64,000 nucleotides of DNA from Candidatus Bathyarchaeia archaeon (GTDB taxonomy: Archaea > Thermoproteota > CALKCG01 > B24). Of the stretch, positions 42,999 to 61,876 are shown piece by piece. Location: positions 704,001 through 768,000 of the forward strand of contig JAVZJD010000001.1 of NCBI GenBank assembly GCA_038870975.1. The letters are read 5' to 3'. Under the pieces are notes generated by a model, which was given only the letters and a program-made list of their open reading frames with translations, ran no database searches and was not told the origin of the DNA. Position 1 is the stretch's first letter. Every line of letters starts with the position of its first letter. Made by a program: the position numbers and the translations under genes.

Positions 42999-44408
42999 CT
43001 AGTTTCCTCCAATTGCTCTATCTAATTCCCCATTAATCCATGGATACAGTGCTTTAAGTTCTCTTAAAGCCTCTACGACTTTCTCTCTTGGATAATAGTA
43101 TGGGCTAAGTTTACCCCTTAGATAGTCGTCGAAGGCTTTCAGGTCCAAAAGGCCATGACCGCACAATAGGAACAGTATGGTTTTCTCCTCACCAGTTTCT
43201 CTGCATTTCAATGCTTCATCTACTACCGCTCTAATAGCATGACTAGGCTCAGGTGCTGGTATGATTCCTTCAGACCTTGTAAACATAGTAGCTGCTTCGA
43301 ATACTTTCACTTGGTCGTAGGCTTTGGTTTTCACTAAGCCATTTTTTGCTAATAAGCATAATGTGGGGGCTTTACCGTGGTATCTTAATCCTCCTGCGTG
43401 TATTGGTGGAGGTATAAAACTATGACCCAATGTGTACATTTTTATTAGAGGTGTAAGTCTTGCCGTATCTCCGTGATCGTATGTATAGTATCCTTGAGTT
43501 ATAGAAGGACATGCCGTAGGTTCAACTGCTATGTACTCCGTATCTTTTGGAGCTTTCCCTGAAACCTTATCGTAGTAAAACGGCCATAGTAGCCCTGAAA
43601 AGCTACTTCCACCGCCTATACATCCTATTATAACATCTGGATAGTCGTCGATTAGTTCAAGTTGTTTCTTTGCCTCTAAGCCTATTACCGTTTGATGTAT
43701 TAAAACATGTGTTAGAACGCTTCCAAGAGTATACTTGGTTCTTGGGTTTTTCACAGCATCCTCTATAGCCTCACTTATAGCTATACCTAAACTACCTGGA
43801 TTATCCGGGTTCTCCTCAAGTAGCTTCCTACCGAATTCTGTTCGACTGCTTGGGCTCGGTAAAACCTCAGCACCCCACACCTCCATCAAAATTCTCCTAT
43901 ACGGTTTCTGATCGTAGCTAACTCTAACCATGTATACAGTCGACTTCATTCCAAACGTCATACATGCGAATGCTAAAGCCGAACCCCATTGTCCAGCTCC
44001 AGTTTCCGTTGTAAGTCTCTCAATGCCCTCCTTGAGGTTGTAGTATGCCTGAGCTACAGCCGTATTGGGTTTATGGCTTCCCGGGGGACTTACACCCTCG
44101 TATTTAAAATAGATTTTAGCAGGCGTTTTAAGCAGTTTTTCAAGCCTATAGGCTCTATATAGCGGCGTCGGCCTCCAGAGCCTATAAACGTCTCTAACTT
44201 CTTCAGGTATCGGTATCCAACGGTCTTGGGATATCTCCTGCCTTATAAGTTCCTTAGCAAATATCACTTCAAGCTCTTCAGGTTTAACTGGTTCTCTAGT
44301 CGCCGGATTTATAGGCGGAGGCAGTGGCTCAGGTAGATCTGGTAGTATGTTATACCATTCTCTGGGTATATCTTCTTCGTTTAAATAGACCTTATACTCT
44401 TGATTCAT
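42999..44408 (-). CDS. trpB2: TrpB2-type tryptophan synthase beta (stand-alone copy)
   Basis: [35 protein letters not shown]; ATG 44408 preferred over 44471. Confidence 0.93.
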
Positions 44409-44467
44409 GAGAGAAATGAAGCTTAAAAGGTTTCTTTTAAACTTTGTTGAACAAAAATGTACATTAA

Positions 44468-45703
44468 TCATCGTTTAAGGCTAAGTCTCCTAGAAAGCGC
44501 TAAAATACCTGAGGATACTAATCCAAGCGCTCCCATGAATAATAGTGCTGGTGTGAAAGAAGCGAAATAATCTAAAAGAAAACCCATAATACTCGTCCAT
44601 ATGGAGGCAAATATGAAGTTCGTAGTAAAGTAGACACCTACTGCTAGGTCTTTTGCATATCCTTTAGTTATACTCAACAAGTACGACTGTGTAAGTGTGG
44701 CTATAGAAAAGCTCATGAAAAATAGAATGAAAAGGTGGATTCCTATTGTAAAGTCTGGGCTCTTGTAGATTGTTAAGAAACACGTTAAGATGGCTGAAGT
44801 AGATGTCGATATAACAGCCCCCTTAAGATAACCAATTTTAGCTGAATATTTCCCGAGTAGTACTGGGCCAATCACACCCCCCAATAGTCCCATCGTATAG
44901 ATAATCCCCCTTTCATATACATCTGCGCCAACACCATTTGCTAGGAAAATAGGTATATACGTCGTCATAATCGTTAAATCTGTTCCCCCAGAGTTTATGG
45001 CTAAAGCAACTAGTACAAGGATTATAGACTTTTCGTTAAGCAATGTTCTTACATCTGATTTTATAGACGATTTTACACCGCTACTAACAACAGGCTTTCT
45101 TCCTCTCAAACACAGCAGTAGTAGAATCCCTATCGCAAGCGGTGGAAGAGAGAAAATAAGAAAAGTCCCCCTCCATCCTAGGTACTGGGAAAGTAGAGTC
45201 GCTACGACAGGTCCGACTATATTGCCTATGTAGGCAAATCCGAAGAAGAATCCTATAGCTCTTCCAAGAGTCTTCTCGTCATATTCCTCGGCCAGTATTG
45301 CGGCACCCATTGGATGTTGCGGTGCAACTCCAATTGAGAAAATATTTCTAGCTATGAGAAAGTCTATAAAACCCTTGGCTAGACTGGTTAAAGCACCACC
45401 TAAAAATATGAGGAAATCGCCTATCCCCAGTAGAATATGTCTCGCAACAGCCCTACTCGACATACTGAAAGCCACCTGCAATATACCCCCAATAAAGGAT
45501 GCCATACCTATGATAAGTCCGAAAGAGGAATAGCTCAGATTGAGATCGACTATCATTATAGGGAATAGTATGGATAAACCTACGAATAGATGTTGCATGG
45601 CATGGGATGATGTAACAATTGCTAAAACCATTTTGGAAGTTATAGCCTCTCTTCTGTATTCTTCTACTGTCAAGTAAGACCTATTGGAATTTTCCGTATA
45701 CAT
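44468..45703 (-). CDS. MFS transporter
   Basis: About 12 TM segments; HPMGAAIL...GRAIG...GNIVGP. Confidence 0.85.
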
Positions 45704-45917
45704 ATATTAACTTTACTAGACTGAACTGCCTTCAATCCATTTGTTTTCACAGGTAACATCAATAATATTGATGCTACGCTTCGCTGTAGATTATTATCTT
45801 ATTTACCCGGAATTTTTAAAAAGATGTCTAATGTTCCTAATACTATTTAATGGTCATTCAACTCCTGAGTTTCCTTAGTGCCATGGGATTAGCTATGCTA
45901 TATCTATAAAATTTTCC

Positions 45918-45960
45918 TTATCTAAATTTTAGACAAATTTTCTTGTCTAAAACTTTAAAA
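45918..45960 (+). promoter_or_regulatory. Palindromic operator abutting TATA box of ORF 45981
   Basis: ttatctaaa-ttttagacaa-attttc-ttgtctaaaa-ctttaaaa; 25 bp identical to 56684-56708. Confidence 0.7.
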
Positions 45961-45980
45961 ATATTGAGGAAAAGAATTAT

Positions 45981-46526
45981 TTGAACATGATTGAAAAATG
46001 GAGAAAACATGATATTTATTATGGCTATGAGTATTACTACAAGTTAAATGACCTTATTAAATCTGGTAAATGTAACCACGATGTAAGAAGCACTCCAGAG
46101 TATAAATTGCTATCAACTATAAACCCTCATCTCGCTGAGGCTCTGGCTATTGAAAATGAAATTATTAATTTAAGGAATTCGCTTAAGAATAATCGTTCAG
46201 AGAAAGGGAAAAACAACTATCTAAAAAATTTAAAGCTTCAAAATCAGATAAGAAAACTTGAGCTTAAGAGAGATCTTGAATTGAATAAAGCTAAAACAAG
46301 ATTAGGTTATATAGATACAATGAATGCTTGGAAAAGAAGGAGAGCTAAGGAAAAAATCGCAAAAATTAGAAAAATACCAGGCAAAGTTAAAACCAAGATC
46401 AATGATTTCATAACAAGTCTTATAGCCAAAGGGATTGAAAAAACTACTATTCCTTATAAAATAGAGGAAATTGTTAAAAACGGAATGAATCAGACGCTAA
46501 AAGATCTGGTGGAGGAAAAAAGTTAA
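45981..46526 (+). CDS. Hypothetical basic, AT-rich protein
   Basis: 181-aa K/N-rich ORF preceded by TATA-like and GAGG sequences. Confidence 0.6.
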   Translation: MNMIEKWRKHDIYYGYEYYYKLNDLIKSGKCNHDVRSTPEYKLLSTINPHLAEALAIENEIINLRNSLKNNRSEKGKNNYLKNLKLQNQIRKLELKRDLELNKAKTRLGYIDTMNAWKRRRAKEKIAKIRKIPGKVKTKINDFITSLIAKGIEKTTIPYKIEEIVKNGMNQTLKDLVEEKS

Positions 46527-46574
46527 TTTTAAACCCCTCAGCGCTCCATCTTACGTAGGAAGCATATTATCTAG

Positions 46575-47819
46575 TTAATCTTCATTAACTACTGTTATGT
46601 GAGTTGCACAGGATATACAGGGGTCGAATGCCCTTATAGCGGTTTTAAGATTTTCCACAGCCTCTTTTACTGGTAGACCTTTTTCAAGAGCCCTTTCAAC
46701 GATATTTCTAGAAAACGCCTTAAGAAAGGGTAGATTTAACTCCGTTGGAGTTATTATTTTAATGCTCTTTACTACTTCTTCTTCAACTTCACACTCGTAA
46801 ATCAATGTACCCCTAGGAGCTTCAACGAAACATCTTCCGAAGCCGCTCTTCTTCTGTGGAGTTTTCCTGTACAATCCTTCTAAGTCCTTTAAAGTTCTCA
46901 ATAAATTCATAGAATACGATAGAGCATTTATAATCTCTAAAATCCTAAGCATGTAAAGATTAAGTAGATTATAAATTGGGAGACCCTCTTCTAGACTATA
47001 ATGTAAGCTAATGAGAGTTTGTCGAGCCAAAGGCCCTGTAAGAATGTCTCTAGTTAACAGGTCTTTAAGTTCTTCCAGAACTTCTAACTCTCTCCAGCTT
47101 GTGCCCTCGTATACCTTAAGCGTACCGTTTATCGGATCCATATCTCTACCGAAGCTTGTAATAAGAGCAGGTGTTCTCTCCAAATTAAACATCTCATAGT
47201 ATTTAGACTTACTAAGATTCTTGGAAATGTTCAGAGCCCAGTTCATGTCTTCCAAGACCTTTTTAACCTCTCTCTCAAGATCGTTTATTGAAGACCCTAC
47301 GATCGGCATATTTAGAAGACCTCCTACTGTCGATATCCCAGGTGATATGGGTCCTCCCGCTATTGATGATAGTAGTCGATCGGCAAACCTTATAACGTTT
47401 AAACCACTACGGAGTAGTCTATAATCCAATAGCTTTTCATCCATTCCAAGAAGTCTAGTGGCATCTTGAAGTCCCATTAAAAAAAGATTATAGGAATGAC
47501 TTCTAATATGTTCTAAGCTCAGAATCAGCCGTCTAACACTTGATGCTAATGGAGGTGCTTCTACATTCAAAGCCTTCTCTAATGCTATAGAGGCGGCTAT
47601 TTGGTGAGAAAACGGGCAGACGCCACATACTTTTGTCACTAACGATGGAATAATGTGGGCTCTTTTTCCGCGTAGAAGGGTTTCAAACTTCCTTAAAACC
47701 GGAAGATTAAGCTCCAATTCTTGAACCTTCCGTTTATGTATTTTAACGATGACTTCTGAAGCGCCTTCAACTCTCGTAAGCGGATGTACTTGTTTAAAAG
47801 ACATACTCCCTCTTCCCAT
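46575..47819 (-). CDS. Group 3 [NiFe]-hydrogenase large subunit (start probably 47804)
   Basis: TRVEG, L1 KVCGVC, EAPRG, L2 DPCISCATH plus 7-aa C-terminal tail. Confidence 0.92.
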   Translation of the reverse strand: MGRGSMSFKQVHPLTRVEGASEVIVKIHKRKVQELELNLPVLRKFETLLRGKRAHIIPSLVTKVCGVCPFSHQIAASIALEKALNVEAPPLASSVRRLILSLEHIRSHSYNLFLMGLQDATRLLGMDEKLLDYRLLRSGLNVIRFADRLLSSIAGGPISPGISTVGGLLNMPIVGSSINDLEREVKKVLEDMNWALNISKNLSKSKYYEMFNLERTPALITSFGRDMDPINGTLKVYEGTSWRELEVLEELKDLLTRDILTGPLARQTLISLHYSLEEGLPIYNLLNLYMLRILEIINALSYSMNLLRTLKDLEGLYRKTPQKKSGFGRCFVEAPRGTLIYECEVEEEVVKSIKIITPTELNLPFLKAFSRNIVERALEKGLPVKEAVENLKTAIRAFDPCISCATHITVVNED

Positions 47820-48537
47820 ATAGGTTTAGGATATCTATAACATCATACTTCAACTCCTTAGGAATGGTAAGTAAAGCTAAGAAATCAATTAGAGATGTTA
47901 ACGAATTATCCTTAAGTGTACCCATACATCCATAGCAACTCCCACCTTGAACAATACATTTTGCCTCACATCCAGCTCTAGTTATAGGTCCAAGGCATAG
48001 AATCCCCTCCTCTAATAGGCACTGCTCGGTTTTCCGCTTTGGAAAAATTTCTCTAATGATTATTGGATATTTTGCCCTACAAGGATGGAATGGGCACTCT
48101 GAGCATACGTTAACTGTCTTATGTTTGAATTCTCTACCACCGATTAAGGCGTAAAGTAGCATCGACATCAGGTTTTCAGGAGGGGGGCAACCTGGGAGCT
48201 CCAGGTCCACTTTTATTATACTATGTATGGGTTTAAGCTCTAGCTCTTTAACATTGCTCGAGATACCTCCAAAGCATGCACAAGACCCTATGGAAATTAC
48301 TCTTCTAGCCTTTGCACGTACTTTTTTAAGCAATTTTTCATCTTCTTTCAAAGCTGAGCCCTCTATAAGTAGCACATCACAATCATCTACATCTCCCCCA
48401 TCCTTTATCATTGGGAAAAAAGCCACGTAACCCTTATTCCATAGTTCTCTAAAGACACTTGAATCTATTACTGATGTTAAACAGCCGCTGCATCCAATAA
48501 ATTGGAGGAAACCTATTTTAGAGGCTTTTAGCCCCAT
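47794..48537 (-). CDS. Group 3 [NiFe]-hydrogenase small subunit (MvhG/HyhS-like)
   Basis: GCSGC, GSCACFGG, PGCPP, CSEC...CLGPITRAGC.A.C......CYGC. Confidence 0.92.
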   Translation of the reverse strand: MGLKASKIGFLQFIGCSGCLTSVIDSSVFRELWNKGYVAFFPMIKDGGDVDDCDVLLIEGSALKEDEKLLKKVRAKARRVISIGSCACFGGISSNVKELELKPIHSIIKVDLELPGCPPPENLMSMLLYALIGGREFKHKTVNVCSECPFHPCRAKYPIIIREIFPKRKTEQCLLEEGILCLGPITRAGCEAKCIVQGGSCYGCMGTLKDNSLTSLIDFLALLTIPKELKYDVIDILNLYGKREYVF

Positions 48538-48539
48538 TG

Positions 48540-51017
48540 CTAAGAACCTCCTAGGTTGCGCATAAAATCGTCCAAAGCTTTTGCGAAAACCCTCCCCTCA
48601 ACGGCAGACAACTGAAGGATTTTAACTTTATTTTTAAACATATTTTCAAATAACTGGATGTTTTCTATTCTTTTCTCAGCAAGTTCAGCTCCTAAACCAT
48701 AGCGGCATGACTCTTTCCTACATCCAACTACTAATACGCCATCGAACCCCTTCTCTAAAGCGTGGGCTATAAGCTCTGAATCTATTAGTCCAGCACACGT
48801 AACTTTCAATGTAAACGCTTTAGCGGTATATTCCAGACTTTTAACACCAGCATCTATGAATGCAGGATAGCCGCAGTTAGCACAGGCTAGCACTAAAACC
48901 TTCGGTTTAAAGTATGCCTTTGAAAATTCATCCATAAATGCTAATAACTCCTCTTCATTAATTGAGGATAAGCGTAGCGCATCTGTAGGACATACCGCCG
49001 TACAAAGACCACAAGCCTTGCACTTGAACTGATCTACGGTCATTTTGTCCGCAGAAAATTTTATTGCGTTAAATGGACACACTGTAGCACAAAGACCGCA
49101 GGTTCCACAGCTTTTTTCGTCTAATAAAATCCCCTCTTCCTCCACTGTAACTTCACCTTTCGTGAGAAGGGAAGCCACTTTTAATGCTGTAGATTGAGCA
49201 TCGTAGACAAGTTCTCTGTACGTTTTAGGACCAGTTATGGAACCGCATGCGAAAATACCAAAGGGTAACGTATCAGGGTTTAAAAACCCCCTATCTGTTG
49301 TAGAGATATCTAAAAGTTTTTTAAGCTCCATTATACGCTTTCTGGGGTCTTCTCCCAAGTTTAAGATGACTAAATCGCAGTCCCATTCAAATTCATCCCC
49401 TAAAACCTTAGGGCCTTCCTCAATACGTAAGTTCTTAACAATATGAATGGGTAGGTCTTTCAAATTACCCAAAGGCGCATTTGCAGGAATCCTATCCTCT
49501 TCAAAAATTATTCTTATATCCATACTAGAGTCCATCTTCTTCAAAGTTTCAAAATACTTGCGAGCAAGAATGCAACAGTATTTTGAGCAACCTACTTCAT
49601 TTATACATTGAATGATAGCTACCTTTTTGGGATGGGATTTACCAAATCTTAGTAAAACTTCTTCGATTGGAGCTTCTGGGGTGAGTAAGCTCTCTAATTC
49701 GACGTTCGTTATGACGCCAGTAGTCAATCTATGTTTAAACTTTTTCAATAGTTCGCCATTGTAGTTATCGCAACCCGTTGCGATAACTATGGCTCCCACT
49801 CTGTATATATTCTCCATGCCTTTTGAATCGAAATTTATAGCTCTTGATGGACAGTTCTCTTCGCATTTGCGACATGAAAAGCAACGTTGGTTGTCATTTT
49901 TATCCACGATTGCTGCTTTAGGATAAACCGTCGATAATGGGAGGAAGATCTGTTTTCTGACAGTAAAGCCTAGATAACGTTCGTCTGGCTTTTCTACGGG
50001 GCAAACTTCAATACAGCGGCCACAGAGAGAACACCGTTCAGCATCCACATACGTAGGATTAGTCTTAACTATAAGTTGGAAATCCCCAATCTTCCCAGAA
50101 ATTTGGATAACTTCGGAGTTTGTGAGTATTTTAAGATTTTTAAACTCCAGAACGCTTGAGATTATTTCAGACATCATACAGCTAGCACAGTCACTTTCGC
50201 CATACACACTACTCCAATTCATTACCCTACCGCCTAATGTATGCTCCCTCTCTATCAAGTATGTTTCAAACCCCATTAAAGTCATGTATCTGGCAACAAT
50301 TAAACCGCTTATTCCTCCTCCTATAATCGCTACAGACTTAGGAATACGGACAGTCCTCTTGAAGGGCTTAGGTTTAAAATTTATCGCTCGAACAGCTCCA
50401 TTAATTGTACACATAATCTTCTCGAAAGCTTCCTTTGGAGAACTTCGGTTAACCCTTATGCATCCTTCAAGGATATTTACAGCTTCGTAAGGAATATCTA
50501 TGGTTGAAAGAAGTTCACGTAATCCATTATGAATCTCCGGAGAGCAACCTACTATAACAATTCCATCTAAAAGGTTTCTCTCTATCCACTTTTTTATCCT
50601 CTGAAAATTCCCAGGGCTACATACGTTTTTAAATACGTCAACGGCTACAATATTTTCCATTTCAGATAGCTTTGATGATAACTCTTCTAAATTTATAACC
50701 TTAGAAACTTCACCATGACATTCACAAAATATTATACCAATTCTAGAAACACGTATAGGCTCAGCAACACCAGTACGCCTAACTCCCAACCCCTCTTTAA
50801 GTCTTAAGAAATTGTAAAGTTCGTAACCTTCTTCATTTAAAGAATAAAGTTTTCCCCTCTTCTCTATAAAGGGTGAAATCTTACTCAAATGATAATTAAA
50901 TTTACCAGTTTCTTTAACCCCCACCTTTTCCATAAGCTCAGAATAGGTTAGGGGACCCAGTTCTCCTAAAACCCTGATTATGCTTTCTCTTATAGGATGG
51001 GTTAAAACATCGAACAT
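48540..51017 (-). CDS. Winged-HTH + HdrA-like flavoprotein + MvhD fusion
   Basis: aa 1-73 wHTH (LTHPIRESIIRVL..YSELME..GKFNYHL..YSL); HdrA motifs (FCEC, GCSP, IGGGISG, DCASC, IQC..CSKYCC, GPK, four ferredoxin motifs); MvhD motifs (CANCGY, CAG, DGVLVVGC...C.Y). Confidence 0.88.
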   Translation of the reverse strand: MFDVLTHPIRESIIRVLGELGPLTYSELMEKVGVKETGKFNYHLSKISPFIEKRGKLYSLNEEGYELYNFLRLKEGLGVRRTGVAEPIRVSRIGIIFCECHGEVSKVINLEELSSKLSEMENIVAVDVFKNVCSPGNFQRIKKWIERNLLDGIVIVGCSPEIHNGLRELLSTIDIPYEAVNILEGCIRVNRSSPKEAFEKIMCTINGAVRAINFKPKPFKRTVRIPKSVAIIGGGISGLIVARYMTLMGFETYLIEREHTLGGRVMNWSSVYGESDCASCMMSEIISSVLEFKNLKILTNSEVIQISGKIGDFQLIVKTNPTYVDAERCSLCGRCIEVCPVEKPDERYLGFTVRKQIFLPLSTVYPKAAIVDKNDNQRCFSCRKCEENCPSRAINFDSKGMENIYRVGAIVIATGCDNYNGELLKKFKHRLTTGVITNVELESLLTPEAPIEEVLLRFGKSHPKKVAIIQCINEVGCSKYCCILARKYFETLKKMDSSMDIRIIFEEDRIPANAPLGNLKDLPIHIVKNLRIEEGPKVLGDEFEWDCDLVILNLGEDPRKRIMELKKLLDISTTDRGFLNPDTLPFGIFACGSITGPKTYRELVYDAQSTALKVASLLTKGEVTVEEEGILLDEKSCGTCGLCATVCPFNAIKFSADKMTVDQFKCKACGLCTAVCPTDALRLSSINEEELLAFMDEFSKAYFKPKVLVLACANCGYPAFIDAGVKSLEYTAKAFTLKVTCAGLIDSELIAHALEKGFDGVLVVGCRKESCRYGLGAELAEKRIENIQLFENMFKNKVKILQLSAVEGRVFAKALDDFMRNLGGS

Positions 51018-51388
51018 AATCTAGCAAGTACTAAAAAAGACGGTGCAATTATACTTTTCGCATATAAAGAACTCGTCTAAAACCATCCACTAGTGTGAGT
51101 TTTGCATACCATATTTTTACGAGTCTAATGAGCCTCCACTTCTTATCTGAAGGTTCATAATTTATTAGCGATTGGTCAATTAACTTATAAACGTGCTCTT
51201 ATAGTTCAACAATTCTTGCCGACTGTTTTTAGAAGCTTTTTAAATGATTCATCACTTTTCAATCCTCTATCTTTATTCAAAAATACAATCCTGTTATTAA
51301 CCGACTAATTCAAAAGATAAGTGAAGATCAAGTTAAGAGATATGCAAATTAAGTGGTATTTATATTGATATCCCAATATTACGTGGGT

Positions 51389-52822
51389 TTAAAATAATGC
51401 TTCCATAATACCCAACGAGCCTCGTTTTTCTTCTTCAGTACTACTTAAAATTTGCGCTAGAAGTCCTTCTCTCTTCATAGTTATTTCTGGTCTCAAATAT
51501 GGTTGACCCCCTCCATAAAGACATCCTCTATTACATATGTAGAGTTCTATCGCTCCTTCTCGTAATCTTCCATCATTTACGCTCATTAATATTCTCTCCA
51601 TCTCTTGAATTCCTACAGCTTTATTTGTTTTAAAGTTTAACTCATTTAATTTAACCTCATCAAATGACTTTTCAGTCAATATACCGAAGTCTAAAGTACT
51701 TAGTAATCTGATAAGTTCTCTCGTAGTAAGAATAAGCCCTCTACTAAGTTTCCTAGCTAAACACGAAGTAATCCATACAACAGAAGAGCTATCGATTTTA
51801 GGAGGCTCAATCATATACTTAGAAAGTTCTGGATGAAATCGCTGTATATAGATTGCTTCAGCCTCACTGCTTGGAATTATCGTTAGATTATCTTGCACTC
51901 TCACTGCAACCTGAGGCCTCCAGAGGATAACTTTTTCAAATCCTAATTTTTTAAGTGCTGCTACTGCGATTCCGCTAATTCGTTTATCAAAATTCAGTTC
52001 TTCACCAAGAGCTGCTAAAACCTCTGGTTCAACATAGGCTGTTAAGCGAGTTCCAGATTTAAGAAGCCTCTGAACCTCACTTACGGAGCTTCTCTCCTTT
52101 AAAGCACCTACCGGGCAGTATAACGTACATTGACCGCAACTTATGCAAGATGACTCATCTAGCTTAACTTTAAATGGTGTGGATACTGTTGTCTCAATGC
52201 TTCTGTTTATATAGTCTATCGCAGAAACAATTTCTTGACATACTTTAACGCATCGGCCACATGTAATACATTTCTCCCCGTCTAATGATAATGCAGTTCC
52301 CTCGATATCCAGTGTTTTCTCACGAATAAATGGAAATCTTCGCTCCTCTTGTTTAAACCACACGTTTTGGAGAATCTTCTCTAAAAGACTTAACAATTCA
52401 TATCTATTCATCGGGCATCCTCTAACGTAATAATCGACATTGACGAATCTGCTAACTGGCATCGCCTCGCTAAAGTATTTATGTTCAGAGTAATCTTCAA
52501 CATACACACTTTTTACTTCATCTTCATTTGTAAATCTTCTTAAGCCTGGCACACCGCCTAAAACTGCACATGATCCCATTGCTATTAATATCTTAGATCT
52601 TCTTCTGATGTCTTTAATCGTCGCAACATCTCCCTCCGAGACTATAGCACCCTCAATTAGAGAAATGTCATAGTTTTCACATTTTTCATCTGCTCCCAAA
52701 AGCGTGGAGAATACAACCTCAACTTCTTTATTGTAGACCATTTTCAGCAAGTCTTCACTTAAATTTAACATCTCAATAGTACAACCCGAACAACTTCCAA
52801 ACTTGTATATGGCGATTTTCAT
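51389..52822 (-). CDS. Chimera: [NiFe] small-subunit N-domain + 2x[4Fe-4S] + degenerate [FeFe]-hydrogenase H-domain
   Basis: GSCSGC, EGAI, GSCAVLGG, GCP; CITCGRCVKVC, CISCGQCTLYCPVGAL; ALGEE, ALKKLGF, TSCLARK, LTTREL, ELYICNRGCLYGGGQP. Confidence 0.85.
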   Translation of the reverse strand: MKIAIYKFGSCSGCTIEMLNLSEDLLKMVYNKEVEVVFSTLLGADEKCENYDISLIEGAIVSEGDVATIKDIRRRSKILIAMGSCAVLGGVPGLRRFTNEDEVKSVYVEDYSEHKYFSEAMPVSRFVNVDYYVRGCPMNRYELLSLLEKILQNVWFKQEERRFPFIREKTLDIEGTALSLDGEKCITCGRCVKVCQEIVSAIDYINRSIETTVSTPFKVKLDESSCISCGQCTLYCPVGALKERSSVSEVQRLLKSGTRLTAYVEPEVLAALGEELNFDKRISGIAVAALKKLGFEKVILWRPQVAVRVQDNLTIIPSSEAEAIYIQRFHPELSKYMIEPPKIDSSSVVWITSCLARKLSRGLILTTRELIRLLSTLDFGILTEKSFDEVKLNELNFKTNKAVGIQEMERILMSVNDGRLREGAIELYICNRGCLYGGGQPYLRPEITMKREGLLAQILSSTEEEKRGSLGIMEALF

Positions 52823-53527
52823 CTACTCATCACCTTCATCAAACCATTCATTTTTATTATTCTTATTGAAGAACTGTGCTATCACTTTAACAACGCTATC
52901 ATAGTATGGACTGCTAGAATAATATCTACCCAGTTTCACAAGGATATTCTCCAGAGTTATTCCATGACTGCTATAGAGCTTCACAGCCTCTTTAATTACA
53001 TCAGTACGCATTATCGGTCCACGGCATCCTTCACAGCTTCTATTACTGTGCATACATATGCCATCACATCCAGCGACTGTTAGAGGTCCAAGGCATACTT
53101 CACCGTTAGCCAATAGACAGTCTTCTTCATGCAAGGGGCACTCTGCGCACACAGGTATACCTTCAACACCATATTCCTTACATAAAACTAGTAATTCACA
53201 TTTACCTCCCTTTCTTGGGCATGATTGACACTTAATCTTATGAATAGCTAAAATAACCTCCAAAGCCAATTTACGGTCGCTTCTAACTCTTTCATTATTT
53301 GTTTCCACGTTTAATCCTTCAGATACGGGGAATGCACATGAAGGAATCATCTTACCAGTTTTCTTATCCTCTACCACACATATTCTACATGTAGCTTCTT
53401 CAAACACATTGGGGAAATAACAAAGGGTAGGTATTTCTATACCGAGTTTTTTCGCAGCCTCAAGTACTGTAGTACCATCTTCAACAGTAGCCTCTTTCCC
53501 ATCTATGATTACCCTTACCATGCTCAT
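52823..53527 (-). CDS. Chimera: NuoG/HydA-type [2Fe-2S] + His-ligated [4Fe-4S] domain + [NiFe] small-subunit C-terminal Fe-S domain
   Basis: IPTLCY..CRICVVE..PSC; HKIKCQSC....CEL; CAECP....CLL..G.VCLGPLT.AGC...C......CEGCRGP. Confidence 0.85.
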   Translation of the reverse strand: MSMVRVIIDGKEATVEDGTTVLEAAKKLGIEIPTLCYFPNVFEEATCRICVVEDKKTGKMIPSCAFPVSEGLNVETNNERVRSDRKLALEVILAIHKIKCQSCPRKGGKCELLVLCKEYGVEGIPVCAECPLHEEDCLLANGEVCLGPLTVAGCDGICMHSNRSCEGCRGPIMRTDVIKEAVKLYSSHGITLENILVKLGRYYSSSPYYDSVVKVIAQFFNKNNKNEWFDEGDE

Positions 53528-53528
53528 A

Positions 53529-55508
53529 TCACCTCTTTACTACGGCCCCTCTTGGGCATACCATGGAGCATTGTCCGCATCTTATGCACCTTTCAGCATC
53601 TATATAGTATTTGCCATCAATATCCTTAAATATTGCTTCAACGGGACAATTCTTCGCACAGAGTCCACATCCTATACAAACATCCTTATCGATTGTATAG
53701 TTTAACAGCTTTTTACATACTTTTGCGGGGCACCTCTTCTCGTTAATATGGGCCTCATATTCCTCCCTAAAGTATTTGAGTGTTGTTAAAACTGGATTTG
53801 GAGCCGTTTGGCCTAACGCACATAAGCTTGCATCTTTCATGAATTTACTTACGTTTTCTAAGACTTCCAAGTCTTCTTCCAAACCACCTCCATCTATTAT
53901 TCTGCTAAGGGTATCATAAAGTATCTTTGACCCTGCTCTACATGGTAGACATTTACCACAGGCCTCAGCCATAGTAAATGTTGTGAAAAACCTCGCTACG
54001 TCTACTATACAGTTGCTATCATCAATAACGACTAATCCACCAGACCCCATTATAGCACCTGCAGAGGTTAAACTTTCATAGTCTATCGGTAAATCAAGTG
54101 CACTTTCAGGTAAGCATCCTCCAGAGGGTCCACCAATCTGAACGGCTTTAAATTTTCTCCCTTCTCTAATGCCTCCTGCTATCTTAAATATGAGTTCTCT
54201 TATTGTTGTTCCTATTGGGACTTCAGCAGCCCCTGTCCTCTTAGCACATCCAGTAATACAGAAGACCTTTGTCCCTTTACTTCTCTCAGTTCCATACCTG
54301 GCAAACTTTTCCCACCCTTCGGCCATTATTGTAGCTACATGAGCTAGCGTTTCAACGTTATTGATGGTCGTCGGTTTACCAAATAAGCCATGTGTAGCTG
54401 GATATGGTGGACGCTGTCTTGGCATAGCTCGCCTCCCCTCTATGGCTGCTAACATCGCTGTTTCCTCTCCACAGACAAATGCTCCTGCGCTCCGTACAAC
54501 TTCTACGTTGAAGTTAAACCCTGAATTGAATATGTTTTTTCCTAAGAAACCGTATCGCCTAGCTTCATCAACTGCCTTTTCCAACCTTTCAGCCATCAGG
54601 GCTTTCTCCGCTCTAACAAAAATATATCCATATGTAGCACCTATGGCGTATGCAGCTATTATTAAGCCTTCTAAAACTCTATGAGGATCTGCTTCAGCAA
54701 GCATCCTATTCATGAAAGCTCCAGGATCTCCTTCATCAGCATTGCATATAACGTATTTAGGTTCCCCCTGAGCCTTTCTACATATATCCCATTTTAACCA
54801 TGTTGGAAAACCAGCTCCTCCTCTTCCTCTTAGACCAGACCTCTTAACTTCTTCTATAACCTCTCCAGGTGATAATTTTAATGTTCTATTGAGGCCAAGG
54901 TAGCCACCGTGAGCAATGTACTCTTCAATTGACTCGGGGTTTATGATGCCACAATTTCTGGTAACCCACTTCACTTGATACTTGTAGAAGTCTATCTCCT
55001 CTAAGAGAGGAACCTTATTTTCACCTCTAGCATTACCCGTTCTACTTCTGAGAGCAAAGGCGTTGCTAACATCACCATTATTTAAATATTCATCTAGAAT
55101 TTTTCCGACATTTTCAGGAGTCACTTTACTATAAATGGCATGAGGTAATCCATCCTTACGTATTTCGACTAAAGGTTCAGCATAACATAAACCCATACAG
55201 CCAACGGGGACGATAGAAACTTCTAATCCTCTTTGCTTAACTTCTTTCTTGATAGCGTGATAAACTTCCCCAGCTCCAACAGCTAAACCGCAGCTTCCCA
55301 TGCCCACAGTTATTTTTACTCCACCCTTACCATTTCTTATCTCTGAAATTCTCCGTAACCTTCTTTCTTTACATTCCACGTCTTTATGGCATAATGGGCC
55401 ATTAACTCTACATGTTATATAGTCCTTGCAGGGTCTCTCAATCTTATGGTTGCATTGACTACAACAGGCATCCATTAAACTCAATCCATTATGGACATCC
55501 AATGGCAT
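53529..55508 (-). CDS. NADH-binding flavoprotein HydB/NuoF type with extra Fe-S domains
   Basis: Thioredoxin-like 2Fe-2S N-domain, GRGGAGFPT, NADEGDPGAFM, CGEET, GGPSGG, CGKCLPCR, C-terminal 2x[4Fe-4S]. Confidence 0.93.
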   Translation of the reverse strand: MPLDVHNGLSLMDACCSQCNHKIERPCKDYITCRVNGPLCHKDVECKERRLRRISEIRNGKGGVKITVGMGSCGLAVGAGEVYHAIKKEVKQRGLEVSIVPVGCMGLCYAEPLVEIRKDGLPHAIYSKVTPENVGKILDEYLNNGDVSNAFALRSRTGNARGENKVPLLEEIDFYKYQVKWVTRNCGIINPESIEEYIAHGGYLGLNRTLKLSPGEVIEEVKRSGLRGRGGAGFPTWLKWDICRKAQGEPKYVICNADEGDPGAFMNRMLAEADPHRVLEGLIIAAYAIGATYGYIFVRAEKALMAERLEKAVDEARRYGFLGKNIFNSGFNFNVEVVRSAGAFVCGEETAMLAAIEGRRAMPRQRPPYPATHGLFGKPTTINNVETLAHVATIMAEGWEKFARYGTERSKGTKVFCITGCAKRTGAAEVPIGTTIRELIFKIAGGIREGRKFKAVQIGGPSGGCLPESALDLPIDYESLTSAGAIMGSGGLVVIDDSNCIVDVARFFTTFTMAEACGKCLPCRAGSKILYDTLSRIIDGGGLEEDLEVLENVSKFMKDASLCALGQTAPNPVLTTLKYFREEYEAHINEKRCPAKVCKKLLNYTIDKDVCIGCGLCAKNCPVEAIFKDIDGKYYIDAERCIRCGQCSMVCPRGAVVKR

Positions 55509-55626
55509 TCACCTCTATGGGAAGTTGAAGGAATTATAAGAGTACTTTAATTAAAACATAAGTATACTACCTATATATGGGAATAATTCCTTTCGCCGTA
55601 GATTTATAATTCAAAAATGTTCACCT

Positions 55627-56190
55627 CTATATTTCGCCATATGATTCTCCTTTAGTTTTAGTTCGATACTTGGAAATTATCCTACGGAGCTTCTTAAAAT
55701 CAACTTCACCATATATTTCATCATTCACTTTGATAACTGGGGCTAGACTGCAGCATCCTAGGCATCTAACTTTAAATACAGTGAAGAGCCTATCCTTAGA
55801 AGTATTTTCGCCAGGATTAATATTAAGTAAATTCAGTAGGAAGTTGTAGTTTTCAGAGTTGCCTTTAATATGGCACGCTGTGCCCATACATATTTGTATT
55901 ATATTCTCACCGGGCGGCTCCATATTGAATTGATGGTAAAACGTGGCGACTCCATAGATGCTACTTAGTGGTACTTTTAAATTGTTTGAAACAAGTTCTA
56001 AGCTCCACTTTGGAAGATAACCTAATCTATTCTGAATTTTCTGGAGGATCAGAATGAGGGTTTTTCTAGATCTACCATTACTTTCAATAACATTGTTTAT
56101 AACTTCCTCAATAAATGCTACATCAACATCTCTAGATACTTGCTGTTGCAAATCCTCGCCTCCATTGCTCTGTTGTTCTCTGGGGCTCAC
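55627..56190 (-). CDS. HydC/NuoE-type [2Fe-2S] subunit
   Basis: GVATFY, CMGTACH, CLGCCSLAP. Confidence 0.93.
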   Translation of the reverse strand: MSPREQQSNGGEDLQQQVSRDVDVAFIEEVINNVIESNGRSRKTLILILQKIQNRLGYLPKWSLELVSNNLKVPLSSIYGVATFYHQFNMEPPGENIIQICMGTACHIKGNSENYNFLLNLLNINPGENTSKDRLFTVFKVRCLGCCSLAPVIKVNDEIYGEVDFKKLRRIISKYRTKTKGESYGEI

Positions 56191-56199
56191 CTACTACGC

Positions 56200-56640
56200 T
56201 TATAGTTGCGCTCTTAAGAAGTACCATAGATGCTTGCAGAACTCTTCATACTGTTGTGGAGTAAATAGATATTGGATGTCTTCTTCAAGATTTGTTGGCT
56301 CAACTTCAGCAACCCACTCTTTTTCTGGGTCGTTATTTAAAGCTGATATGTTGTTTAAAGCTTCATCATTAATCTTTTTAATTCTGCCAGAAACTGGTGA
56401 AGTTAATTCAAAAGTGACCCCCTTCATTTTCACTGCCCCTAAGGGCTCCATCCGTTTAACCTCAGCTCCAATCGGCTTCAGCTCACAACAAACATCATAT
56501 GCTCCATTTTTGCTCAATTCTTTAAAACAATCACATATTTGTTGAGTTAATCCAATTCTAACAGTTTGTTCATCAGTAATCGTTACCCACATGAGGGAGG
56601 ATGTGTAGAGGAAACCTGAAGGGTAAATTTTCTTACTCAT
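56200..56640 (-). CDS. Glycine cleavage H-like protein lacking the canonical lipoyl Lys
   Basis: Y....MWV, RIGLT, SPVSG.I..IN, N.DP...W, Y fold signature. Confidence 0.82.
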   Translation of the reverse strand: MSKKIYPSGFLYTSSLMWVTITDEQTVRIGLTQQICDCFKELSKNGAYDVCCELKPIGAEVKRMEPLGAVKMKGVTFELTSPVSGRIKKINDEALNNISALNNDPEKEWVAEVEPTNLEEDIQYLFTPQQYEEFCKHLWYFLRAQL

Positions 56641-56675
56641 GAGTCATCACCCACTTGTGGTGTTCCATACCTATT

Positions 56676-56719
56676 TTTTAAACTTTTAGACAAATTTTCT
56701 TGTCTAAATTTTAGATAAG
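56676..56719 (-). promoter_or_regulatory. Palindromic operator abutting TATA box of the gcvH-like/hydCB operon
   Basis: Minus strand reads cttatctaaaatttagacaagaaaatttgtctaaaagtttaaaaa; same layout as 45918-45960. Confidence 0.7.
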
Positions 56720-57178
56720 AAAATTTTTATAATCATATCAACTACTAAGAACCTATTTGAGAACCTTGAATTTTAGACTTCCAACTCTACACTTCTTCTG
56801 AGTATTTATCTAAAAATGTTTTCCAGTCTTTACTACATCGTTTTCTATCTTATTTCTGGCAGAATATAGGATACTTATTGACAAAGAAAATTGCTATTTG
56901 TCTCTTTTGAGCATTAGCTTAAGTAATACAGTATAATCTTTAACCAAAAACATAATTCAGTTTTCCCCTCCATGTCCATCTTTACTCATCGTAAGAGCGA
57001 TAAACAATATCAATACAGAATTTATTAGCAGAAGAGTGCTCCGAGCGGGCACTGTCACTTCGGGTCCAAATCTCTTCTCCCCGCCTAACCCCTCAATGGT
57101 CGTTCTCACTGATAGTTGTACTTGAAGATGCCGGAAACAGTCTGAAGATATGGGTTAGAAAGTCCATTAGAAATTTGA

Positions 57179-57478
57179 TTGTTACTGTGGCCGATGATAA
57201 ACCTTATATTTGCAGTGGCAATAAGCCTTACATTAATTGGCATTGAAAAGTTCTATCAACATGCTGGACTCGGTGCAAGAATTATAGTGCTAAGTCTTAT
57301 CTGTACTCTTCTAGATGTGCCATTAGTTTATGTTGTGGTCGTCATAGTACTAGGCTTATCCATCATAGCATACTTAGTATCCTTGCCAATCTACGCCACA
57401 TTACAACTCATTCCAATAACACTCCTCTCGTATGAAATCACTAGAAGGCTCATACGATTAAGAATCTTTCAATTCTAG
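57179..57478 (+). CDS. Small membrane protein, possibly 5'-truncated
   Basis: Three hydrophobic segments and a basic C-terminus; TTG start immediately after an in-frame TGA. Confidence 0.45.
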   Translation: MLLWPMINLIFAVAISLTLIGIEKFYQHAGLGARIIVLSLICTLLDVPLVYVVVVIVLGLSIIAYLVSLPIYATLQLIPITLLSYEITRRLIRLRIFQF

Positions 57479-57591
57479 TCGTCAAGGTAGCGGGTCATAC
57501 GCTAAACGATTAGGGAGCGTGGTTACAGCGCGCTTAATGGGAGATCAGTGAAGCGAAGCTTTTTATTGCTAGCAACTCAGCCCTAGCAATA

Positions 57592-58863
57592 CTATTCAGG
57601 ACTGTATGCCGACAAATCCAAGAGGCCGTGTCCACTGAAACAGAAGACGATTGTTTTTTGTTGGTTTCTCCGTTTACATTTTAATGCCTCAACCATTACT
57701 TGTTTGATTGCGTGCGCTGTCTCGGGAGCTGGAACTATCCCCTCTGTTTTTGCGAAAATTTTTGCACTCTCTAAAACTTCTTCTTGAGTGTATGCTGCCT
57801 TCTCTACAATGCCCTCCTTGATGAGGATAGATAGGGTTGGTGCGGCGGCATGATATCTCAATCCGGCTGCGTGTATTGGCGACGGGATGTAATTTCTTCC
57901 AACAGTGAACATTTTAAGCATTGGGAGATACCCAGCCGTATCCGCATGTTCGTAAACATAGTTTCCCTCTGTGATTTTTGGCGAGGCTTTAGACTCCACC
58001 GCGATAAATCTTGTGTTTTTCAGTTCCCCCTTTGTTAGCTTGTCTCCTATGAAGGGGAAGCTTAAACCTGCAAAGTTGCTGCCCCCACCAACACATCCTA
58101 TAATAACGTCTGGAGTTTCTTGCAGTTCCTCAAGCTGCTCTTTCGTCTCTAAGCCTATGACTGTTTGGTGTAGAAGCACAAAATTCATTACGCTGCCGAC
58201 CGAGTACTTGACGTTCTCATTTTTTATTGCTGTTTCTACGGCTTCAGATATGGCTATACCAAGCGATCCTGGATGTTCGGGATTTTCTCTTAAAAGTTTC
58301 CGCCCAACCTCTGTACGATTGCTCGGGCTTGGAACAACCTCTGCGCCGTAGAGGTTCATTAACGTCTTTCTGTAGGGTTTTTGAAGGTAGCTGCTTCTAG
58401 TCATGAAAACTAAACATTTAATGTTGAACATTGCGCATGCAAACGCTAAAGCTGAACCCCATTGTCCGGCGCTAGTTTCGGTGACAAGTGTGTCAACGTT
58501 CTCCATTTTAGAATAGTAGGCTTGAGCTAGAGCAGTGTTAACCTTGTGGCTTCCCGTGGGACTCAAGTCTTCACGCTTAAAATAGATTTTCGCGGGCGTG
58601 TCCAAAACCTTTTCGAGGTTTCTGGCTCTAACTATGGGGGTTGGCCGACCAACTTTCCTGTAAGCCTCTAAAACCTCGGAAGGTATTGGAATACTATTTT
58701 CAGCGGAAAACTCTTGATCCAGCAGAGCTGATGGGAAAAGTTTCGGAAGTAGCTCAATTCTAGAAAAACGGTCATCATCCTCTGGGTCTCTTGGAGGAGG
58801 TAACGGTCGAGGCAGATCCGGAACAATGTTATACCAGAAGTTCGGAACGCTACCTAAACTCAT
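57592..58863 (-). CDS. trpB2: TrpB2-type tryptophan synthase beta (operon copy)
   Basis: WYNIVPDLP, GSHKVNTA, TETSAGQWG, HAAGLRYH; overlaps trpA. Confidence 0.93.
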   Translation of the reverse strand: MSLGSVPNFWYNIVPDLPRPLPPPRDPEDDDRFSRIELLPKLFPSALLDQEFSAENSIPIPSEVLEAYRKVGRPTPIVRARNLEKVLDTPAKIYFKREDLSPTGSHKVNTALAQAYYSKMENVDTLVTETSAGQWGSALAFACAMFNIKCLVFMTRSSYLQKPYRKTLMNLYGAEVVPSPSNRTEVGRKLLRENPEHPGSLGIAISEAVETAIKNENVKYSVGSVMNFVLLHQTVIGLETKEQLEELQETPDVIIGCVGGGSNFAGLSFPFIGDKLTKGELKNTRFIAVESKASPKITEGNYVYEHADTAGYLPMLKMFTVGRNYIPSPIHAAGLRYHAAAPTLSILIKEGIVEKAAYTQEEVLESAKIFAKTEGIVPAPETAHAIKQVMVEALKCKRRNQQKTIVFCFSGHGLLDLSAYSPE

Positions 58864-59633
58864 GCTTCTAACGCCTCCTTCAAACTTCGAACAAATTTTG
58901 CCAGTTTCTCCTTTTTCAGTCGCATATTCTGCCCGTTATTTATTAACTTAAGTATCGCGCTTCCTACGACGACACCGTCGGCTCCAGCTTTTACGTAATC
59001 TGAAACTTGAGACGGTTCATTAATGGCGAAACCCACAAGCAAAGGTGTATCGCCGGCAAGTCCCTTCATTATCTTGATGGCTTTAGTCACAGTGATCGGC
59101 AAGAAAGTTCCTGTGGACGCCATCAACCCCAAATAGATGAAGGCGGGGTTTAGTTGAGCTAGTTTTGAAACCATCTTGTGTGGGAAAGTGCTGGTGATAA
59201 AAAACATAGGGTCAAAATCATGTTTCATGCAAAGCCTGAGATACGTCTCTAACTCCTCCATGTACTCTATTAATAAGTCTGGAAAGAGTATGCCTTCAGC
59301 GCCAGCGTTCGAAACATACTCCATAAAATTTTCCAAGCCCACGGCTTTTGCGAGTTCAAAATATGTAAAGACGACTTTATGCACCAGTTGGAAATTTTTT
59401 ATTAGTGAGAAGCTTTTCTCAACCGTTGCTCCATTCCTTAAGGCTCTTTTATAACTCGCTCTTATGGTTAGGCCATCATATTTCGGCTTAACAGTTGGGA
59501 TGCCAAACTCGAAAATGTCGACTCCGCATTCGGATAGAACATCCACAATTTCACTGTTTACGTAGGGGTCTCCAGCCGTTAAATAGGCTACAAGCACTTT
59601 ACTTTTTAGCGCTTCTCTGAGGTTGCCCTGCAT
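58860..59633 (-). CDS. trpA: Tryptophan synthase alpha
   Basis: YLTAGDP, EFGIP....YDG.TI, VGFAI, ADGVVVGSA. Confidence 0.93.
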   Translation of the reverse strand: MQGNLREALKSKVLVAYLTAGDPYVNSEIVDVLSECGVDIFEFGIPTVKPKYDGLTIRASYKRALRNGATVEKSFSLIKNFQLVHKVVFTYFELAKAVGLENFMEYVSNAGAEGILFPDLLIEYMEELETYLRLCMKHDFDPMFFITSTFPHKMVSKLAQLNPAFIYLGLMASTGTFLPITVTKAIKIMKGLAGDTPLLVGFAINEPSQVSDYVKAGADGVVVGSAILKLINNGQNMRLKKEKLAKFVRSLKEALEA

Positions 59634-60403
59634 AACTCCTCAACCTTAGCCCTAATATCCTTAGCCTCGCTTATGGCCGTTCCAACAAGAATTCCATGAG
59701 CGTACTGCATTACGAATTTAACATCCTCTGCGTTTCTTATACCAGTCTCGCTGACAAGGAAGTCCGCGCTAACTTCCACGGATAAATCCTTTGTTTTTCT
59801 AAGGTTCCTTTCCACGCCTTCACCATTATTGATTCCCACAAATTTCGCCGAAGTTTTTCCCACAACCCTCGCATCTTCAACGCTGTTTACTTCAACCAAG
59901 GGTTCAAGGCCAAAGCTTCTTCCAATTTGAATCAAGTCTTCAAGCCTTTTCGCATCCTTAAACTGGTCAGCTATCAGTAGATATGAGCTGGCGCCCGCGG
60001 CTACAGCCTCATAGATCTGGAATTCTTCAAGTATGAGATCCTTCCTCAATGTTGGAACATTAAATGTTTTTGAAACCTTGAAAAGGTAATAGAGACTTCC
60101 TCTATAATAAATGGGTTCCGTCAAAACAGAGATTGCCGCAGCTCCACCCTCAAGCATCTTGGAAACGGCCTCAACCGGCTCGTAATAGTAATGGTAAATC
60201 CTCGTAGGCGAGGAGGGCTTAAACTCGGCGATTAGAGGAACTCTATCTCTAACTGATTTGAGGGTTTTCAAAATATTTGGTGGCTTCCTATTTCTCACAG
60301 TTTCTTCTGCTAGCTTTTCAAGCCGTTTAACGTCAACTCTTTGCTTATCGTAGGCTATGTGCTTACGCATATCCTCAAAGATTTTAGATCTAAGACTGCC
60401 CAT
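59606..60403 (-). CDS. trpC: Indole-3-glycerol phosphate synthase
   Basis: IAEFKPSSP, ISVLTE, LRKD.I...QI, LVEV, GINN. Confidence 0.92.
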   Translation of the reverse strand: MGSLRSKIFEDMRKHIAYDKQRVDVKRLEKLAEETVRNRKPPNILKTLKSVRDRVPLIAEFKPSSPTRIYHYYYEPVEAVSKMLEGGAAAISVLTEPIYYRGSLYYLFKVSKTFNVPTLRKDLILEEFQIYEAVAAGASSYLLIADQFKDAKRLEDLIQIGRSFGLEPLVEVNSVEDARVVGKTSAKFVGINNGEGVERNLRKTKDLSVEVSADFLVSETGIRNAEDVKFVMQYAHGILVGTAISEAKDIRAKVEELCRATSEKR

Positions 60404-60408
60404 ACACG

Positions 60409-61458: not shown

Positions 61459-61801
61459 TGGCGCATATTGAGACCCCCTCCACGGGACAAAAAAGAACGT
61501 GTTAGTGCATATTTAAACTTTTTTGTATAAAAATGTACATAAAAAATAAAAAAATTAATACTGATTTTATTAAATGGCTTGAAAGCGTGCATATTTGGCC
61601 AAGGATGCCTTGGAGGGGCTGAAAGACACTATATGGTCGAGGAAGGACAACGCCAATGCGCCATGTTTCAGCCCCGCAATTACCCTTCTATAACGTCCTA
61701 TCGCAACGTCAAAGTTGTATATTTCATCCATTTCTCCATCGGAAATGGATTGTCGCGTAGGCTTAAAAGTGGAGGGAAGAGAATTGAACCCGAGTTGTAG
61801 G

Positions 61802-61876
61802 TGCTCCGGGCGGGATTTGAACCCGCGTCGGGAGGGTGAGAGCCTCCTATGCTTGACCTGGCTACACCACCGGAGC
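61802..61876 (-). tRNA. tRNA-Glu(CTC)
   Basis: GCTCCGG/CCGGAGC acceptor stem; GGAGG-CTCTCAC-CCTCC anticodon arm; GGTTCAAATCC T-arm. Confidence 0.93.

Follow-up and report, generated by a model that had tools for sequence, protein, structure and literature searches.

Hybrid [FeFe]/[NiFe] hydrogenases (group F/3f) of archaea were published in 2024 (Greening et al., Cell, PMC11216029). The group, represented there by 21 group F clusters, is defined by a HyhS-HydA fusion encoded contiguously with HydB, HydC, the NuoG-like HydD and the large subunit HyhL. The paper states that the H-cluster ligands are conserved and that HydEFG is absent from most archaea with [FeFe] hydrogenases, and it reports that two HyhS-HydA fusions produce H2. 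This paper concerns a hydrogenase block in a 64,000-nucleotide stretch of a Candidatus Bathyarchaeia archaeon genome (GenBank assembly GCA_038870975.1, contig JAVZJD010000001.1; C1:704001-768000 of genome G000), which we call the window. A first-pass annotation had proposed the block as a new system in which one [NiFe] large subunit serves two alternative small-subunit modules. The system is less new than proposed, since hybrid hydrogenases were published in 2024 (PMC11216029), and comparative genomics splits the block into separable modules: Unit 1, a cut-down version of the published hybrid cluster, and Unit 2, a separate [NiFe] hydrogenase beside it.

The reading that we favour, with confidence slightly above even, is that the block consists of two separately transcribed, co-inherited modules, with HdrA as a trigger enzyme and Unit 1 as its electron outlet. 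We found no evidence for a catalytic subunit common to both units, and none is required; the large subunit belongs with its own small subunit.

Two adjacent modules

The host genome is 1.85 Mb in two contigs and 92.9% complete, which bounds every absence reported for it below, and the relatives with which it is compared are not independent samples. Domain calls were made from the open reading frame (ORF) listing and Pfam scans, with supplementary PDB searches, an AlphaFold model and Foldseek. The block holds eight genes, all on the minus strand, within 10.8 kb: five in Unit 1 and three in Unit 2. They are given here with the flanking features, in the direction of their transcription.

56684..56708, no strand: operator 1 (exact 25-mer)
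56200..56640, minus: GcvH-fold protein of 146 amino acids (aa), first gene of Unit 1 (Pfam GCV_H, E=4e-16)
55627..56190, minus: HydC, NuoE-like [2Fe-2S] thioredoxin-like subunit (Pfam 2Fe-2S_thioredx, E=4e-43)
53529..55508, minus: HydB, NuoF-like flavin mononucleotide (FMN)/NAD(H) subunit (Pfam Complex1_51K, NADH_4Fe-4S, Fer4 and 2Fe-2S_thioredx)
52823..53527, minus: chimera 1, HydD, 234 aa (Pfam Fer2_4 and NADH-G_4Fe-4S_3)
51389..52822, minus: chimera 2, HyhS-HydA fusion, 477 aa (Pfam Oxidored_q6, Fer4 and Fe_hyd_lg_C)
51018..51388, minus: intergenic gap of 370 nucleotides (nt), with a TATA-like box about 35 nt ahead of the hdrA start (from the sequence)
48540..51017, minus: 825-aa protein joining a DUF7347 winged helix-turn-helix (wHTH; residues 1-75), full-length HdrA (88-698) and MvhD (703-821) (Pfam)
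47794..48537, minus: complete group-3 [NiFe] small subunit, 247 aa (Pfam Oxidored_q6; N-half and C-half both present)
46575..47819, minus: [NiFe] large subunit, 414 aa, Mvh-type by context (Pfam NiFeSe_Hases)
45981..46526, plus: orf181, Lys-rich, 181 aa, convergent with Unit 2 (ORF; no family match)
45927..45951, no strand: operator 2, the same 25-mer, upstream of the orf181 TATA-like box (exact 25-mer)

This inventory agrees with the first-pass annotation in the position of all eight genes, the chimeras among them, and of the pair of identical 25-nt palindromes. The HydA/small-subunit chimeras that it described are borne out by Pfam, PDB, alignment and Foldseek, as is the DNA-binding domain that it assigned to HdrA (DUF7347 wHTH, Pfam E=3e-14). 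In PDB searches the remainder of the 825-aa protein matches HdrA (residues 88-698, E=6e-83) and MvhD (703-821, E=5e-12). The large subunit has intact CGxCxxxH (N-terminal) and DPCxxCxxH (C-terminal) motifs, and its PDB matches are group 3 enzymes, including MvhA. Besides its FMN/NADH domain, HydB has a 2Fe-2S domain at the N-terminus and a 2x[4Fe-4S] domain at the C-terminus, extra Fe-S domains of the kind seen in bifurcating enzymes.

In the closest group, delimited by a fusion protein at least 63% identical, Unit 1 and Unit 2 lie next to each other on five independent contigs. The two run the same way in the window and in G005 and are convergent in G003 and in the metagenome contigs L060 and L061, where they are therefore separate transcription units. 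Given this arrangement and the TATA-like box in the 370-nt gap, the gap likely holds a separate Unit 2 promoter. Moreover, the Unit 2 triplet stands without Unit 1 in five distant Thermoproteota loci (L068, L069, L070, L071 and L079; 34-41% identity), so that the 414-aa large subunit comes with its own native partners. In every locus read, the small and large subunit genes come after wHTH-hdrA-mvhD, a fusion that is itself rare (about 9 clusters in a search of 5.8 billion proteins). Divergently oriented genes accompany some of the distant triplets: HdrC-like and HdrB-like genes at L069, and DUF2096_N genes at L068, L069 and L071.

DUF2096_N was not found in G000, and PF02754 (CCG/HdrB) had no match in the window or in G000, whereas 12 of 14 control genomes matched; the high-potential acceptor must thus be something else. 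HydG likewise had no match in G000, and HydF none above the cut-off (HydE lay outside the search). The maturase result is not decisive, since the same absence is reported in the hybrid hydrogenase paper for most archaeal genomes with [FeFe] hydrogenases (PMC11216029). The genome's one HycI-type protease gene is at C1:112468, beyond the window, and adjoins a group-4 enzyme. The window is therefore, as first described, free of hdrB, hydF, hydG and a maturation protease.

The block is accessory. Within genus g1, both units are present in G000, G003 and G005, neither was seen in G001 or G002 (87-89% complete), and G004 (72% complete) shows Unit 2 only, its contig of 5.7 kb breaking off a little way upstream of hdrA. 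In G001, G002 and G003 the major facilitator superfamily (MFS) gene (44468-45703 in the window) lies about 1 kb from the orthologue of a 552-aa gene (62061-63716). At this site G000 has about 16 kb extra (45703-62061), made up of orf181, the hydrogenase block, TrpB-like/TrpA genes (57592-59633) and neighbours. The G003 block is found at another chromosomal site, syntenic to G000 C1:836 kb, and the flanks of L060 and L061 also differ.

Several features of the surroundings may be recorded here. Paralogous PALP (TrpB-like) genes, 58% identical, lie on the same strand on either side of the block (42999-44471 and 57592-58863). Between the gcvH promoter and the next gene are some 880 nt (56709-57591) without a convincing ORF; they hold a single TTG frame of 99 aa and, near 57040-57110, a stretch rich in GC. 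When window positions 45000-58000, which cover this interval, were scanned with Rfam and for tRNAs, nothing matched.

Operator-promoters and the winged helix of HdrA

The 25-mer TTTAGACAAGAAAATTTGTCTAAAA is present in exactly two copies in the 1.85-Mb genome (45927-45951 and 56684-56708), and its core, GACAA-N6-TTGTC, has only two occurrences in the whole genome. The operator is a palindrome, TTAGACAA-N6-TTGTCTAA. Operator 1 has a third, upstream half-site and abuts the gcvH TATA-like box, and the flanks of site 2 are the mirror image of those of site 1. Each copy lies immediately upstream of a TATA-like box, that of the gcvH-like gene (minus) or that of orf181 (plus). The two had been taken for matching operators that bracket the block. 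The copies are identical as claimed, but each precedes its own promoter, which makes them twin inward-facing operator-promoters rather than brackets around one operon; the distal copy precedes the convergent orf181 and is no end point of the operon.

In G003, L060 and L061 the region ahead of gcvH keeps both half-sites, TTAGACAA and TTGTCTAA, unchanged while the spacer varies, the pattern of a phylogenetic footprint. The operator is also conserved ahead of orf181 in G004, where the protein is 83% identical over its full length; G005 has a partial orf181 copy, and orf181 had no Pfam or Atlas match. Use of the 25-mers as recombination sites of an excisable or invertible cassette was considered and rejected, because both copies are spaced alike relative to the TATA-like box and start codon that follow them, relatives without a second copy keep the one at gcvH, and the core also occurs upstream of distant wHTH-hdrA genes.

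Indeed, four of the five distant loci have sites with at most one mismatch in the 300 nt ahead of wHTH-hdrA, against an expectation of 0.003-0.03 per 300 nt. L071 has two exact core copies, and the L079 site abuts a TATA box. Three of these loci (L070, L071 and L079) were fetched after the site prediction had been made, and two of the three were positive. The motif is absent at the Unit 1 clusters without wHTH-HdrA that were examined (L020, L021 and L063). A putative recognition helix, ETGKFNYHL, is conserved in the wHTH-HdrA proteins of the window and the distant loci. From these co-occurrences, the HdrA-borne wHTH probably controls the neighbouring operon.

Two further observations touch on this domain and on the hdrA upstream region. 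A second DUF7347 wHTH in G000 (C1:452262-454533, L074:2263-4533) is fused to an ATP-cone and NrdD in a 756-aa protein, and ORFs of about 750-830 aa that share the N-terminal wHTH of this NrdD fusion are present in G012-G016; the enzyme-fused wHTH is thus a recurring pattern in this lineage. A different palindrome, TAGACATGTCT, with an AGACA half-site and no spacer, lies about 250 nt upstream of hdrA in relatives of the convergent type (L018:16380-16410 and L060:9990-10020) and is not present in the window's 370-nt gap.

The rival that survives best, though we think it unlikely, is that an accessory island carries two functionally unrelated units whose association is due to chance. On this view another factor binds the palindrome, and the wHTH has some other role (such as protein contact or a different target). 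This reading would fit the accessory state of the block, which forms part of the 16 kb extra in G000 and sits elsewhere in G003; the joint loss of both units, which could be one deletion; the AsnC-type regulators that adjoin some related clusters; and the lack of the palindrome at hdrA's own promoter in this clade. Chance does less well with the adjacency of the units, which has outlasted inversion, a change of chromosomal site in G003 and different flanks in L060 and L061. Nor would it lead one to expect the core ahead of wHTH-hdrA at four of the five distant loci, all of them without Unit 1, or its absence from the three clusters (L020, L021 and L063) that have Unit 1 and no wHTH-HdrA.

Descent of Unit 1 and its chimeric proteins

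In the 234-aa protein, residues 1-128 match residues 1-128 of HydA (PDB HydA1), with the 2Fe-2S and His-ligated 4Fe-4S sites, and the stretch ~124-215 aligns with the half of complete group-3 small subunits that binds clusters at the C-terminal end (40% identical to the 3b HyhS over 92 aa). The 477-aa protein has the other two parts: a small-subunit N-half with the four proximal-cluster Cys, followed by HydA from about residue 118 onward, that is, 2x[4Fe-4S] and a shortened H-domain. Pfam places Oxidored_q6 (residues 11-149) and Fe_hyd_lg_C (388-438) within this single protein. The chimeras are therefore reciprocal, HydA and the small subunit being swapped across two polypeptides.

The AlphaFold model of the 477-aa protein has a predicted local distance difference test (pLDDT) score of 84-95 over most of the H-like domain, and Foldseek matches the model to HydA of the bifurcating HydABC (8a6t) and CpI, and also to MvhG and the SHI delta subunit. 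In alignment the H-like domain is about 110 residues shorter, a shortening that is family-wide and includes the canonical clusters. Three of the four H-cluster ligands are invariant, C354 (P2) and C430/C434 (P3, CxxxC...GGGQP). The P1 motif TSCCP reads P-x-S-E-A-E, and the P1 Cys is missing in every family member aligned, canonical ones included. The 477-aa protein has no Cys in residues 237-353, and its P1 positions are Ser318/Ser319; the fourth ligand may be Ser or an external ligand.

Unit 1 was compared across two kinds of cluster: five canonical (type A) clusters (G012, L057, L058, L059, a Sulfolobales contig, and L062) and eight without a large subunit (type B: the window, G005, G003, L060, L061, L063, G016 and G015). 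The type A order is hydC-hydB-hydD-hyhL-fusion without gcvH in five of five, in diverse lineages, with a large subunit of 426-484 aa between hydD and the fusion. In the window the hydD end (52823) abuts the fusion start (52822), with no HyhL between. The gcvH-like gene is the first gene of seven of the eight type B clusters (it was not seen in G015) and is in none of the five type A clusters. In a maximum-likelihood tree of the fusion protein, type B forms a single clade (86/81) nested within type A, and so the loss of hyhL and the gain of gcvH are derived. By gene order and this tree, Unit 1 descends from a group F/3f hybrid cluster that had its own large subunit. Homologues of the fusion with the same architecture are 40-87% identical over most of the query and score E=1e-54 or better, whereas the next matches, bacterial HydA, score far worse; those named are from Bathyarchaeia, Thermoproteota/Sulfolobales and Njordarchaeales.

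A test for relaxed selection on the small-subunit half, once the large subunit had been lost, was negative. All 15 Fe-S cysteines of the fusion protein are conserved in the type without a large subunit (15/15), and its small-subunit half is no more diverged there than in the canonical type.

The GcvH-like protein is the sole GCV_H in G000. In alignment its invariant Lys73 is displaced by one residue from the canonical lipoyl position, as counted from the SPxSG motif, and a profile search of G000 found no LplA-B_cat ligase domain (LipA, LipB and other ligases lay outside the search). The idea that this protein is a lipoylated substrate of the three-Cys cluster is weakened by both results. A complex prediction of the GcvH-like protein with the two chimeras scored 0.01 and carries no weight either way. 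On the Sulfolobales contig (L059:10595-16844) the canonical hybrid cluster is directly followed by a 2-oxoacid dehydrogenase set of E1 alpha/beta, lipoyl E2, E3 and lipoate ligase, a neighbourhood that hints at a possible link between hybrid hydrogenases and lipoyl-protein metabolism, of relevance to the gcvH-like gene.

Other variations were noted among the relatives. HydC has 313-333 aa rather than the usual ~180 aa, with an extra domain, in two canonical clusters (L057:3880-4881 and L062:3575-4516), and a PhoU/MazE-like gene and an AsnC-type regulator recur beside clusters of the L057/L062 type. Stop-ridden copies of Unit 1 (hydC, hydB, hydD and the fusion) occur in two sister-family genomes, at L023 (G010:C13:55600-59900) and L025 (G013:C36); a second G013 copy, on C30, looks intact.

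We regard as improbable the proposal that one 414-aa large subunit is common to, or alternates between, the 247-aa subunit (leading to MvhD-HdrA) and a small subunit rebuilt from the chimeras (leading to HydBC), in a switchable or double-bifurcating complex. Unit 1 has indeed lost the in-cluster large subunit of canonical clusters, its small-subunit half keeps the four proximal-cluster Cys and is no more diverged than the canonical one, and the two units remain adjacent across rearrangements. However, three genomes of the sister family f4 (G013, G015 and G016), and contig L063 likewise, keep Unit 1 without an adjacent large subunit. The three genomes have no HdrA-MvhD like the window's 825-aa protein, and their sole group-3 large subunit is of the 3b type, unlinked to Unit 1. 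Unit 2, for its part, is a conserved stand-alone triplet in distant lineages.

The sequences of the chimeras point the same way. The window has a single large subunit, as first reported, but the genome holds three more, one 3b-type (in a complete HyhBGSL at C1:991701-995594) and two group-4. In G000 the closest unsplit relative of both chimera halves is the 3b small subunit (E=9e-24 and 5e-17, against E=7e-7 and 3e-8 for the 247-aa subunit), and the in-cluster large subunit of one canonical cluster is 34% identical to the G000 3b large subunit and only 25% to the window's. The first-pass annotation had named two findings that would speak against its model, a second large subunit elsewhere that pairs with the chimera and an unlinking of the two halves in relatives. 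Each is seen in part: a 3b-type subunit does exist elsewhere and is closer than the window's to the canonical hybrid large subunit, and the halves are unlinked in more distant relatives while linked in the closest.

That Unit 1 is a decaying, non-working remnant left by the loss of the large subunit and part of the H-domain is very improbable: there are the frameshifted or stop-ridden copies in G010 and G013:C36, the missing H-cluster Cys and ~110 H-domain residues and the failure to find HydF and HydG in G000, but the frames are intact in G000, G003, G005, G015, G016 and four metagenome contigs, the Fe-S cysteines are all conserved, domain-wise conservation equals that of canonical clusters, which share the shortened H-domain, and a conserved operator-promoter stands ahead of the operon.

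HdrA as a candidate trigger enzyme, and the known systems

In the reading that we favour, with HdrA as trigger enzyme and Unit 1 as its outlet, Unit 2 is a self-contained Mvh-type [NiFe] hydrogenase in which electrons from H2 would reach the HdrA flavin by way of the small subunit and then the [2Fe-2S] cluster of the fused MvhD. Unit 1, without a large subunit, retains its site for NAD(H)/FMN and an unbroken Fe-S chain. HdrA's N-terminal winged helix would bind the GACAA-N6-TTGTC palindrome, and the redox state of HdrA, set by H2 via its own hydrogenase, would govern transcription of Unit 1 and orf181. In a genome that lacks HdrBC, Unit 1 would partner HdrA as its electron outlet, one that is predicted to be NAD(H)-linked and possibly an [FeFe]-type, H2-evolving one.

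A more specific form of this scheme is offered tentatively. Unit 2 may be an enzyme and at the same time a one-component H2/redox-sensing transcription factor, its winged helix switched on or off the operator by reduction of HdrA. It would control HdrA's acceptor module in each lineage, HdrBC-like or DUF2096 genes in the distant lineages and the hybrid module here, with the hybrid module replacing HdrBC as the NAD(H)-linked arm of HdrA-based bifurcation.

Several points weigh against the trigger-enzyme scheme. The fifth distant locus, L070, has no site, and the 370-nt gap ahead of the window hdrA has no core site at up to two mismatches, so that in this clade hdrA's own promoter lacks the operator. 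The self-regulation suggested by the first-pass annotation nonetheless gains support from the way in which the operator tracks wHTH-HdrA across distant loci. Binding of the operator by the wHTH is suggested by co-occurrence, and another regulator could use the site. The constraint on the small-subunit half in clusters without a dedicated large subunit is also expected if that half docks on the window's large subunit or on the 3b one. Finally, the H-domain may be catalytic despite the missing Cys, given the H2 production by two HyhS-HydA fusions reported in the hybrid hydrogenase paper (PMC11216029).

The locus matters in three respects. It offers a natural derivative of the hybrid enzymes that has no [NiFe] catalytic subunit and is conserved all the same, which bears on which active site matters. 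If binding is confirmed, HdrA would by our assessment be the first known electron-bifurcation-type flavoprotein to act as a transcription factor; our literature search found no other. The scheme, if true, would also give a testable handle on H2/redox sensing in uncultured Bathyarchaeia.

Of the described systems, group F/3f is the nearest. Like the published clusters (PMC11216029), the window has a HyhS-HydA fusion contiguous with HydB, HydC and HydD, in the same taxa, and its lack of detectable HydF and HydG matches the pattern given for most archaea. It differs in having no in-cluster HyhL, in its leading GcvH-like gene and in the adjoining Unit 2, and our alignment has only three conserved H-domain Cys, against the ligand conservation stated there. 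With HydABCSL of Acetomicrobium mobile (PDB 7T2R) and the [FeFe] HydABC enzymes (8A6T and 7P5H), Unit 1 has in common the HydB/HydC NADH-FMN module, the extra Fe-S domains and a HydA-type Fe-S conduit with a small-subunit module wired into it; it differs in the HydA/small-subunit swap, the retained H-like domain and the lack of a dedicated large subunit in the operon. Unit 2 resembles the Mvh-type (group 3c) MvhAGD-HdrABC of methanogens (PDB 5ODC): the large subunit, small subunit, MvhD and full-length HdrA match over their whole lengths, and by homology the electron path H2 to MvhG to MvhD to the HdrA flavin adenine dinucleotide (FAD) would be expected here too. In the window, MvhD is fused to HdrA, HdrA has an N-terminal wHTH, and no HdrB/CCG was found genome-wide.

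Two regulatory systems offer functional parallels. In PutA-type trigger enzymes a redox enzyme carries its own DNA-binding domain, and the palindrome that it recognises lies close to genes of the same pathway; the group 2b HupUV/HoxBC proteins are H2-sensing regulatory hydrogenases in which a hydrogenase reports H2 to a regulator. We know of no sequence or fold relationship of either to the window system. The putative sensor here would also differ in being a complete HdrA flavoprotein, with no kinase cascade.

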